From positions 1 to 11,694 of the IMG/VR virus record IMGVR_UViG_2671180437_000003: DNA of 11,694 nt, one strand, 5' to 3'. The notes below the pieces were generated by a model that was not told where the DNA came from, did no database searches, and saw only the letters and a list, made by a program, of their open reading frames with translations. This DNA is from a virus. Its lineage: Duplodnaviria > Heunggongvirae > Uroviricota > Caudoviricetes. The translations under genes and the position numbers were made by a program. Numbering within the stretch: position 1 is the first letter of the stretch; the number at the start of each line of letters is the position of its first letter. Shown piece after piece: positions 4,617-6,822 of the stretch.

Positions 4617-5926
4617 GAGAAGTGGGCTGGCGGTCCCTGTTTCAGGCGATGGCTGAGCCTTTTGCCGGTGCCTGGCAGCAGGGTGTGAAAGCCGATCCGG
4701 AAACCGTTTTGTCCTTTCACGCGGTGTTTTCTTGCATTTCGCTGATATCCCAGGATATCGCCAAAATGCGGCTGCGCCTGATGCAGACGGATACACAGGG
4801 GATCCGCCGTGAAAAACGGCAGGGGGATATTGCCCGTCTCTGTCGTCGTCCCAATGCACAGCAGAATCGTATCCAGTTTTTTGAACTGTGGCTGAACGCC
4901 AAACTGCGTCACGGCAATACGGTGGTGCTGAAAATCCGTAACTCCCGGGGGCAGATCAAAGAACTGCGTATTCTGGACTGGAGCCGGGTTGAACCTCTGG
5001 TGGCGGATGACGGCGAGGTGTTCTATCGCATCACGCCGGACCGGAACTGCGGGATCACGGAGGCGGTGACGGTGCCTGCCCGGGAAGTGATCCACGACCG
5101 GTTTAACTGTTTTTTTCATCCGCTTGTGGGGCTGCCGCCGGTGTATGCCGCCGGGCTGGCGGCCACGCAGGGGCATCATATTCAGGAAAATTCGACGTCT
5201 TTTTTCAGAAATGGCGGCAGGCCATCCGGGGTGATTGAGATCCCCGGCAGTATTACGGAAGAAAATGCGAAAAAACTGAAGAGCAACTGGGACAGCGGGT
5301 ATACCGGCGAAAATGCGGGGAAAACGGCCATTCTGAGCAACGGGGCAAAATACAACCCCACGACGTTTTCACCGGTGGATGCGCAGACGGTGGAACAACT
5401 GAAGATGACCGCTGAAATTGTCTGTTCGGTGTTCCGTGTCCCGGCCTACAAGATTGGCGTTGGCCAGCCACCTTCCAGTGACAACGTGGAGGCGCTGGAG
5501 CAGCAGTATTATTCCCAGTGCCTGCAGACGCTGATTGAGTCCATTGAACTGTTACTGGATGAGGCGCTGGAAACGGGGGAAAACGAGAGTACGGAGTTTG
5601 ACGTCACCACGCTGCTGAGAATGGACAGCGAACGGCGCATGAAAACGCTGGGTGAGTCGGTGAAAAATACGCTTCTCACGCCCAATGAGGCCCGTAAACG
5701 TGAGAACCTGCCGCCCCTGGCCGGCGGTGATGCACTGTATCTTCAGCAGCAGAACTACAGTCTGGAGGCGCTGTCCCGTCGTGATGCCCGTGAAGATCCG
5801 TTTGCGTCGTCCGGGAAAAGAGTTTCAGCCCAACTGCCTGACGGCGCATCTGACGGTAATAAGGCAATCAGTGAAACAGAGCATGGTGCGTTGAAAGCGA
5901 TGTTGAGGGGGATACTGCGAAAATGA
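4562..5926 (+). CDS. Phage portal protein (HK97-family-like); start codon uncertain (ATG 4562 or in-frame ATG 4649)
   Basis: 454 aa ORF containing segments typical of portal proteins (AVFSCISLISQDIAKMRL; FFRNGGRPSGVIEIPGS; VFRVPAYKIGVG). GGAG at 4550-4553 precedes ATG 4562; an alternative in-frame ATG at 4649 (MAEPFAG) would avoid the overlap with the 4395..4616 ORF. Confidence 0.7.
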   Translation: MWNLLRRTRKNQKSGRDVREVGWRSLFQAMAEPFAGAWQQGVKADPETVLSFHAVFSCISLISQDIAKMRLRLMQTDTQGIRREKRQGDIARLCRRPNAQQNRIQFFELWLNAKLRHGNTVVLKIRNSRGQIKELRILDWSRVEPLVADDGEVFYRITPDRNCGITEAVTVPAREVIHDRFNCFFHPLVGLPPVYAAGLAATQGHHIQENSTSFFRNGGRPSGVIEIPGSITEENAKKLKSNWDSGYTGENAGKTAILSNGAKYNPTTFSPVDAQTVEQLKMTAEIVCSVFRVPAYKIGVGQPPSSDNVEALEQQYYSQCLQTLIESIELLLDEALETGENESTEFDVTTLLRMDSERRMKTLGESVKNTLLTPNEARKRENLPPLAGGDALYLQQQNYSLEALSRRDAREDPFASSGKRVSAQLPDGASDGNKAISETEHGALKAMLRGILRK

Positions 5927-6822
5927 CGGAACGGGAACTGTCCATTATTCGTGCACTGGGCGAAGAATTCGCCACGGTGCTGGCGGATTTACAGCACACA
6001 TTTGAGGAGAAGATGGCCGCGCAGGCACAAGCGTTTGAAGAGAAACTGGCTTCCCTGTCGGCGGTATTACAGAAGCATGTGACGGTGGATGAGGTACATC
6101 CGGTTCTGCAGGCGATGGTGGATGACGCTGTGGGGACCATTCCGGTACCGCGTGATGGTCGTGATTATGATCCGGATGTACTGCAGCAGGCGGTGAATGA
6201 TGCGGTTGCGAATATTCCGGTACCGGCGGACGGCAAAAGTATCACCCCCGATGATGTGCGTCCGATGCTTGAGCAGATGGTGAAAGAGGCTGTAAGCCAT
6301 ATCCCTGCTCCGCGTGATGGTCGTGATTACGATCCGGAAGTACTGAAGCAGGCGGTTCTGGAGGCGGTGAATGCCCTTCCGGCTCCGCAGGACGGGCGTG
6401 ATGCCACGGCACTGGAAGTGCTCCCCGCTATTGACGATCAAAAATCCTTTCCCCGGGGCACGTATGCCACACACCTGGGCGGACTCTGGCGGGCGTATGA
6501 AAAAACGCACGGGATGCGGGGATGGGAATGCCTGGTTGACGGGGTGGCCGATATTGACGTCAGCATGACCGGCGAACGGTCGTTCACTGTGGTGGTCCGG
6601 CAGAGCAGTGGCCAGCGTACGGAAAAAACATTTTCCCTGCCGGTGATGCTCTACCGCGGTGTGTTCAGAGCCGGTGAAACCTACCACCCCGGCGATACAG
6701 TGACATGGGGGGGCTCGCTGTGGCACTGCAACAGTATGACCGGTGATAAACCCGGAGAAGCTCATTCATCAGGCTGGACCCTGGCTGCCAAACGGGGACG
6801 GGATGCTGGAGGCGGAAAATGA
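5923..6822 (+). CDS. Hypothetical head-module protein with four tandem 25-29 aa repeats (consensus IPxPxDGRDYDP-VLxQAVxxAV); function unknown
   Basis: 299 aa ORF coupled to the portal gene by an ATGA overlap (5923-5926). Four tandem repeats in the protein, and a 46-nt near-identical DNA repeat (6149-6194 vs 6311-6356, 3 mismatches). Confidence 0.6.
   Translation: MTERELSIIRALGEEFATVLADLQHTFEEKMAAQAQAFEEKLASLSAVLQKHVTVDEVHPVLQAMVDDAVGTIPVPRDGRDYDPDVLQQAVNDAVANIPVPADGKSITPDDVRPMLEQMVKEAVSHIPAPRDGRDYDPEVLKQAVLEAVNALPAPQDGRDATALEVLPAIDDQKSFPRGTYATHLGGLWRAYEKTHGMRGWECLVDGVADIDVSMTGERSFTVVVRQSSGQRTEKTFSLPVMLYRGVFRAGETYHPGDTVTWGGSLWHCNSMTGDKPGEAHSSGWTLAAKRGRDAGGGK

Follow-up and report, generated by a model that had tools for sequence, protein, structure and literature searches.

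The virus record IMGVR_UViG_2671180437_000003 (IMG/VR) holds, over positions 1 to 11,694, the late-gene module of an Escherichia coli lambdoid long-tailed prophage of the Stx1/Stx2c type (Stx, Shiga toxin), and this whole stretch of 11,694 nucleotides is referred to here as the window. The product of the gene between its portal and head-tail adaptor genes, hereafter X, is probably a variant of a phage fibre rather than a new category of protein, belonging to a common, mislabelled, portal-coupled fibre family with a hypervariable stalk and a one-base fused/split dimorphism in Stx phages. The reading that we favour, tentatively and with somewhat less than even confidence, is that X forms an accessory, low-copy, probably trimeric collar or neck fibre on the outside of the virion. 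The DNA of X shares 98% identity with prophages of swine and bovine E. coli and with converting phages for Stx1a, Stx2a and Stx2c.

X reads from an ATG at 5923 to a TGA at 6820–6822, giving 299 amino acids (aa). The initial annotation had placed it between the portal and a connector, with translational coupling on both sides, and both statements agree with what was found. Profile matches in Pfam, TIGRFAM and PHROG identify the gene upstream as an HK97-type portal and the gene downstream as the adaptor Ad1 (Table 1), and X overlaps each of them by an ATGA stop/start, with the portal stop TGA (5924–5926) overlapping the X ATG (5923–5925) and the Ad1 ATG (6819–6821) overlapping the X stop. It is also the case, as had been remarked, that the family is not a recognised one, since nothing in Pfam or NCBIfam scores above threshold, the PDB holds no sequence relative and no curated family claims X. 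Weak Pfam matches in relatives of X (TetR_C_35, DUF4244, FliG_N and others) reflect low-complexity helices and were disregarded.

The databases nevertheless give this protein the name of its neighbour. PHROG profiles match most of X (phrog_1289 at 3e-157, and phrog_2271 at 8.6e-193 over positions 689–859 of its 859), and PHROGs 1289 and 2271, NCBI and RefSeq all name it "portal protein"; the exact protein is CTW33629.1, a "putative portal protein-like protein". No portal domain is matched in X by Pfam or NCBIfam, while the open reading frame (ORF) upstream is matched at 4e-81 and 1.2e-106, and on its sequence X therefore does not appear to be part of the portal despite the label. The label arises because alleles exist in which portal and X are fused, and the PHROG name is no evidence for the function of X. 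The family is very large, uncharacterised and systematically mislabelled: a scan of all cluster representatives returned 5,727 clusters at 50% identity with E ≤ 1e-3 and 2,735 with E ≤ 1e-10. A literature search on O157 prophage portal frameshifts, siphophage neck fibres, portal C-terminal extensions and D3-like virion proteomes returned nothing on X.

The centre of the protein is a repeat stalk built from two alternating kinds of unit, each a short proline-containing stretch followed by a helix. Units of kind A have 25 aa (IPxPRDGRDYDP plus helix) and units of kind B have 29 aa (IPxPxDGKSxTP plus helix), so that A plus B make a super-unit of 54 aa or 162 nucleotides (nt). The initial annotation had counted four tandem repeats of 25–29 aa, and its four peptides are indeed present at aa 73, 98, 127 and 152. 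The units themselves are real; the fourth (LPAPQDGRDA...) is better described as the lead-in to the C-terminal domain than as a full unit, and a degenerate helix of type B (aa 52–72) precedes the first unit. The accompanying repeat of 46 nt (6149–6194 vs. 6311–6356) is likewise as described, with 43 of 46 bases matching and exactly 3 mismatches; in 200 codon shuffles of X the best match of any 46-mer was 30 of 46, with a mean of 26. A repeat finder extends this core to two copies of 119 nt spaced by 162 nt.

The number of super-units varies between phages, as had been suspected. Complete E. coli X proteins at 90 IMG/VR loci are 245, 299, 353, 407, 461, 515 or 569 aa long, which corresponds to 1 to 7 super-units in steps of 54 aa, and one query matches homologous E. 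coli loci over lengths of 684 to 1,224 nt, in steps of 162 nt. Among the matches listed, distant standalone relatives reach 862 aa with more than 20 units. Internal units of 162 nt in long alleles are often 100% identical (four in locus L040, two in a Klebsiella locus), which means that the copy number is still in flux. The outermost units (first and last) are diverged, and the window allele consists of only those two edge units, which accounts for an identity of 67–75% between its copies with a better-kept core of 46 nt. Thus, the suggestion of a recent duplication or ongoing recombination applies to the long alleles, whereas the two copies in the window are older. The 90% cluster holding X has 2,394 members, most of the listed ones being "partial" proteins of 178–292 aa from short contigs; the repeats of 162 nt evidently break short-read assemblies inside X, and this is the reason that such entries fill the cluster.

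To describe the remainder of the protein we used an AlphaFold2 monomer model built with 47 diverse sequences, which has a mean predicted local distance difference test score (pLDDT) of 80.5; an earlier model with 17 sequences reached a pLDDT of 56, and only its local matches to chitin-binding domains were usable. The model begins with a long amphipathic helix, and the N-terminus carries the motif MxERELSxIxAxGEEF, conserved in Enterobacterales. The stalk is predicted, with moderate confidence, as four helices of 13–18 residues (aa 55–72, 84–96, 109–125 and 138–150) with proline-rich loops between them. It is acidic, and the extreme C-terminal tail is basic. A beta-rich C-terminal region follows, in which a GG-(L/S)-W motif is present in two copies (at about aa 176–205 and at aa 241–290). 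The second of these lies in a module resembling CBM5/12 chitin-binding domains: the profile PF02839 scores 19.1 bits on X, below the gathering cut-off of 26.2 bits, while P0031 at 28.1 bits and P0059 at 26.2 bits, both relatives, reach it, and the C-terminal end of X is modelled as the small three-stranded beta fold with exposed aromatic residues that is typical of CBM5/12. The nearest viral structure models are collagen-repeat, ChiC_BD (chitin-binding) and tail-fibre proteins, and X also has weak matches to tail-fibre PHROGs.

Homologues in other phages also speak for a fibre. In Stenotrophomonas phage SOVA965 the gene between portal and connector (4290–5201 of L121) retains the N-terminal helix and the C-terminal domain of X, with a collagen sequence of about 27 G-X-Y triplets where the repeats would stand, and the homologue of Rhizobium phage RHph_X2_26 has shorter collagen-like stretches; the window protein has no G-X-Y run. 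The stalk module has thus been swapped between members of a single gene family that occupy the same genomic position. Collagen stalks in homologues imply a trimer and an exchangeable spacer, and on this ground the X of the window may also be trimeric. Burkholderia phage vB_SBP33 and Moraxella phage Mcat1 share the same module order, with portals 42–45% identical, and in both the portal is followed directly by the adaptor with no X between them, which makes X an optional, accessory component.

Where X is present outside E. coli it is a gene of its own. A search for related loci with an alignment of 17 sequences reached only Enterobacterales. Among 16 loci from genomes of other species (including Pantoea, Atlantibacter, Kluyvera, Kosakonia, Enterobacter, Phytobacter, Buttiauxella, Citrobacter and Proteus), every intact one encodes portal, X and Ad1 as individual ORFs whose stops and starts overlap. 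The same layout is found at five further loci, in Klebsiella and Pantoea prophages, Pseudomonas phage PAJU2, Rhizobium phage RHph_X2_26 and EBPR siphovirus 3, so that a portal-X fusion was seen at 0 of the 21 loci examined outside E. coli. The ATGA or GTGA overlap of portal and X is conserved in Klebsiella, Pantoea, PAJU2 and EBPR siphovirus 3. On this distribution the split arrangement is the ancestral and general one.

Within E. coli, a single base near the 3' end of the portal gene determines the arrangement. The window has a run of five G (G5) at this place and therefore separate genes, and a sixth G (G6) puts the portal frame straight into the X frame, joining the N-terminal helix of X to the portal C-terminus. 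Exact-pattern scans of IMG/VR gave 48 split G5 loci and 42 fused G6 loci; in the latter the X frame is open through the whole portal, 459 codons upstream. The two states mostly stand on different, diversified flanking haplotypes, with three haplotypes holding both, which indicates two persistent lineages with occasional switching and not sequencing noise. Among complete E. coli genomes the junction is present in 1,055 of 5,426, at 2,525 places, and a perfect junction reads G5 in 347 records and G6 in 187. Named phages occur in both states, with 2851, YYZ-2008 and vB_EcoS-705R7 fused and BP-4795 split. Portal fusion accounts for about 1% of clusters among the matches listed. We scanned ten relatives with Pfam, the nine longest among 150 listed and the top E. 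coli match, and the only protein from outside E. coli with a portal domain in this set was P0235, an independent, divergent portal fusion of 1,237 aa at 41% identity.

The frame of X seems to be maintained in both states. In the C-terminal domain (125 codons, in an alignment anchored on the DGRDA motif) the ratio of nonsynonymous to synonymous polymorphism (pN/pS) is 0.26 for the G5 lineage and 0.20 for G6. These values come from non-independent pairs and could be equalised by recombination between G5 and G6, and an open frame of X may in itself be favoured by its ATGA coupling to Ad1. X is intact at similar fractions in split and fused lineages. Taken together, the codon comparison indicates that X is under purifying selection at the protein level.

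In the mechanism we propose, translational coupling to the portal and adaptor genes would lead to X being made in portal-like, i.e., low, amounts, and its N-terminal amphipathic helix would dock it at the portal vertex. The helix-plus-proline-loop units of the stalk would set the length of the fibre, which unequal recombination between units of 162 nt could alter freely, and the conserved C-terminal domain with its CBM5/12-like end would be the working end, probably binding a glycan or another widely conserved ligand. Projecting from the collar or neck, such a fibre might aid reversible attachment in a role comparable to that of the T4 whiskers. Fusion to the portal C-terminus in G6 alleles would trap it inside the head, which would be tolerated because X is dispensable. 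An external location is suggested because X has the character of a fibre with collagen-plus-CBM relatives, because its structural neighbours include tail fibres and because its presence is optional.

Several observations weigh against this assignment. The C-terminus of the portal forms the crown, and in every solved portal structure known to us the crown points into the capsid, so that a portal fusion puts X inside the head. Fused alleles are common (42 of 90 IMG/VR loci), have diversified haplotypes of their own and keep X intact about as often as split ones, and phage 2851, which is fused, is said to be infectious; common and intact fused alleles would be explained more simply if X normally sat on the crown inside the capsid. 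Furthermore, among phages of E. coli, Pseudomonas, Rhizobium and Stenotrophomonas no other part of X is as well conserved as the C-terminal domain, a pattern unusual for a host-specific adhesin, and our literature search found no virion proteomics, microscopy or binding data for X. On the other hand, T4 tolerates a bulky C-terminal portal fusion in the form of gp20-GFP, and fused alleles may simply sequester a dispensable fibre.

The alternative that best survives these considerations, which we regard as possible but rather unlikely, is that X is a fibre inside the capsid, standing on the portal crown along the capsid axis, with split and fused forms functionally equivalent. The N-terminal helix would bind the portal C-terminus or, in G6 alleles, be covalently continuous with it, and the whole would correspond to the P22 portal barrel, only encoded by a gene of its own and variable in length, or would be equivalent in position to SPP1 gp7 and other MuF proteins. 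The persistence of the dimorphism, with each state on haplotypes of its own and a few recent switches, the presence of both states in finished genomes and in named phages, the independent fusion in P0235 and the similar constraint on the C-terminal domain in both states all fit this arrangement, as do the acidic stalk and the basic tail. Genes downstream of the portal often encode portal-bound internal head proteins such as those of the MuF family (PMC5576092). Set against this, no MuF domain is detectable in X, its nearest structural neighbours are fibre-type proteins, lineage recombination could explain the equal constraint, and the fusion is rare outside E. coli (none of the other 21 loci and about 1% of the clusters among the matches listed). 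Seven super-units, if extended, could also exceed the width of a T=7 capsid. To our knowledge, collagen-like trimeric stalks and CBM5/12-type modules occur only on external phage structures, which again counts against an internal position. That a fibre working both free and joined to the portal should normally lie inside the capsid, as a modular axial fibre of hypervariable length with a stalk of collagen or helix repeats and a CBM-like tip, is a conclusion we hold to be doubtful, though not a negligible one. If it were true, it would reveal inside the capsid a structure of a new kind, so far undescribed in siphophages, in which a one-base G5/G6 polymorphism switches architectures.

The two frames could in principle also be joined during expression, by programmed −1 frameshifting or transcriptional slippage at the G5 run or at A_AAA_UGA, such that a minority of portal subunits carry X in the manner of the tail chaperones G and GT. 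A −1 shift at GGG (within 5907–5911) or at AAA before the TGA (within 5920–5926) gives exactly the frame that G6 encodes, about 10 nt before the A run there is a G-rich element resembling a Shine-Dalgarno sequence, A runs precede the stop in BP-4795 and Pantoea too, and the window uses a canonical A_AAA_AAG shift for G/GT. The portal/X junction, however, offers no X_XXY_YYZ heptamer (just CGA AAA TGA and AGG GGG ATA) and no stimulatory structure 5–9 nt downstream, the fold z-score being −1.9 and the stable hairpin lying about 30 nt away; five consecutive G are few for slippage, and both the G run and the A run are missing from the junctions of Klebsiella and PAJU2. We consider expression by frameshifting quite improbable.

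Still less probable is a function as a head decoration, cement or scaffold-like protein, which the initial annotation had put forward. X lies within the head module and its N-terminal half is helical and acidic, as in a scaffold. It is coupled, however, to the portal and adaptor genes, both of 12-copy products, with no capsid gene adjacent, the related phages vB_SBP33 and Mcat1 have the same head module and no X, a scaffold-like coiled coil is already present within the protease-capsid fusion (2413–4350), and a sevenfold variation in length is incompatible with a role in determining size. The reading implicit in the annotation pipeline, by which a frameshift has disrupted one portal gene and left X as its non-functional 3' half (RefSeq annotates portal and X of G5 loci as one "phage portal protein, frameshifted" pseudogene, 4562–6822 in the window and 1640–3900 in locus L001, and intact fused ORFs do exist), is hardly credible and the least probable of all, given that separate genes are the rule in every other genus examined and that X has no similarity to portal domains, keeps its own ATG in the coupling overlap, stays intact and is under purifying selection.

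The mislabelling of X has consequences for how Stx phages are catalogued. The family is present in about one fifth of complete E. coli genomes, often several times and including Stx1 and Stx2c phages, and the flagging of intact two-gene loci as frameshifted portal pseudogenes distorts calls of prophage "intactness" for Shiga-toxin phages and probably inflates counts of "defective" Stx-type prophages. At the same time, otherwise near-identical phages that differ in having X split or fused and in having 1 to 7 stalk units constitute a natural experiment on an optional portal-vertex fibre.

The features of X and the genes around it are collected in Table 1. After Ad1 the window continues with head closure, a gp10-like protein, tail terminator, major tail protein, the G/GT chaperone and the start of the tape measure. 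The gene preceding the small ORF encodes a single polypeptide of 645 aa with a Peptidase_S78 domain (aa 48–151), a coiled-coil scaffold-like linker and an HK97-fold capsid domain (aa 386–635); the same fusion is found in Pseudomonas phage PAJU2, and the Burkholderia and Moraxella relatives have separate genes. The small ORF itself is conserved and overlaps the start of the portal gene by 55 nt, and equivalents are annotated at the matching place in the Burkholderia, Moraxella and PAJU2 phages. At the 3' end of the small terminase gene (571–624) there is a tandem duplication of 27 nt (2.0 copies, 85% match) encoding the Lys/Ala-rich tail GDAGKKSAKGDAAKKAANR. The major tail protein (8219–9064) has a C-terminal Ig-like domain (Ig_3, I-set; aa 192–270 of the long ORF), and a RefSeq start equivalent to about 8348 suggests that the GTG at 8219 is probably too early. 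Finally, a canonical −1 slippery heptamer, A_AAA_AAG, lies at 9444–9450 directly before the TAG that ends the ORF of the tail chaperone G (9031–9453), with the T ORF (9477–9758) in the −1 frame relative to G, which together make an intact G/GT frameshift site.

Table 1. Positions of gene X, its parts and the neighbouring genes in the window.
Feature	Position (nt)	Strand	Details
Small terminase	128–691		
Large terminase	688–2349		
Prohead protease and major capsid protein	2413–4350		Single fused gene
Small ORF	4395–4616		73 aa; between capsid and portal genes
HK97-type portal	4562–5926	+	454 aa; PF04860 4e-81; TIGR01537 1.2e-106; phrog_2271 positions 1–451
G5 homopolymer run	5907–5911	+	Portal 3' end; read from sequence
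AAAATGA junction	5920–5926	+	Termination-reinitiation coupling site; portal stop overlaps X start
Gene X	5923–6822	+	Gene under study; 299 aa; phrog_1289 3e-157; phrog_2271 positions 689–859
N-terminal long amphipathic helix	5929–6072	+	aa 3–50; pLDDT 77–90 (AlphaFold2); proposed portal-vertex docking element
Repeat stalk	6076–6375	+	Degenerate helix, then units A1, B1, A2; net charge −11
DNA repeat copy 1 (family D1)	6088–6206	+	119 nt; contains the 6149–6194 core
Unit A1	6139–6213		aa 73–97
Unit B1	6214–6300		aa 98–126
DNA repeat copy 2	6250–6368	+	75% identical to copy 1; contains the 6311–6356 core
Unit A2	6301–6375		aa 127–151
C-terminal beta-rich region	6376–6819	+	aa 152–299; pLDDT about 97 over aa 170–290; many residues invariant across genera
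CBM5/12-like (chitin-binding-domain-like) module	6643–6792	+	aa 241–290
Head-tail adaptor Ad1 (gp6-like connector)	6819–7145	+	PF05135 1.4e-07; phrog_40 1.2e-30

It is useful to compare X with systems that resemble it in part. SPP1 gp7 and Mu gpF, of the MuF family, are low-copy proteins thought to bind the portal and have variable C-terminal extensions (PMC5576092). The X gene lies, like theirs, immediately downstream of the portal gene (PMC5576092). The MuF profiles PF04233 and PF06152 gave no match to X at E up to 0.1 in a search that did not include MuF3 and MuF4, and X differs from MuF proteins in being fibrous and repeat-rich with a beta-rich C-terminal domain. The G6 alleles resemble the C-terminal barrel of the P22 portal in that X becomes a long helical extension of the portal C-terminus, whereas X is normally a separate, optional polypeptide with repeats and a globular CBM-like end. 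Portal and X also share with the lambda-type G/GT pair two overlapping frames that a −1 shift can join, although here the join is made by a genomic G5/G6 difference with no demonstrable slippery heptamer.

With regard to the C-terminal module, X differs from the CBM5/12 domains of Serratia ChiB and Streptomyces ChiC in scoring below the Pfam cut-off and in having no enzyme domain attached. This small fold is shared by All3316, a baseplate protein of the Anabaena injection system, and by the N-terminus of a proximal subunit of a long tail fibre, and the module of X may consequently be a docking module rather than a glycan binder.

For the protein as a whole a parallel in architecture is offered by T4 fibritin (gp wac), which has an N-terminal anchor, a segmented helical stalk with loops and a small C-terminal domain, and whose gene lies beside neck genes. 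X has a proposed anchor, a stalk, an end domain and neck-gene neighbours in a like arrangement, and would likewise be an accessory fibre of the head-tail junction. No match of X to fibritin was found in a PDB sequence search or in a fold search; the end of X is CBM5/12-like where that of fibritin is the foldon, the units of X consist of a proline-rich loop and a helix of 13–17 aa and vary in number between near-identical phages, and X comes from a siphophage, its location at the neck being a proposal. X differs from collagen-like phage fibres with chitin-binding-type ends in that its stalk in the window is made of helix-loop units and its gene lies in the head module rather than among tail-fibre genes; these fibres are nonetheless its nearest viral structure models, and in SOVA965 and RHph_X2_26 the G-X-Y stretches precede the very same C-terminal domain.

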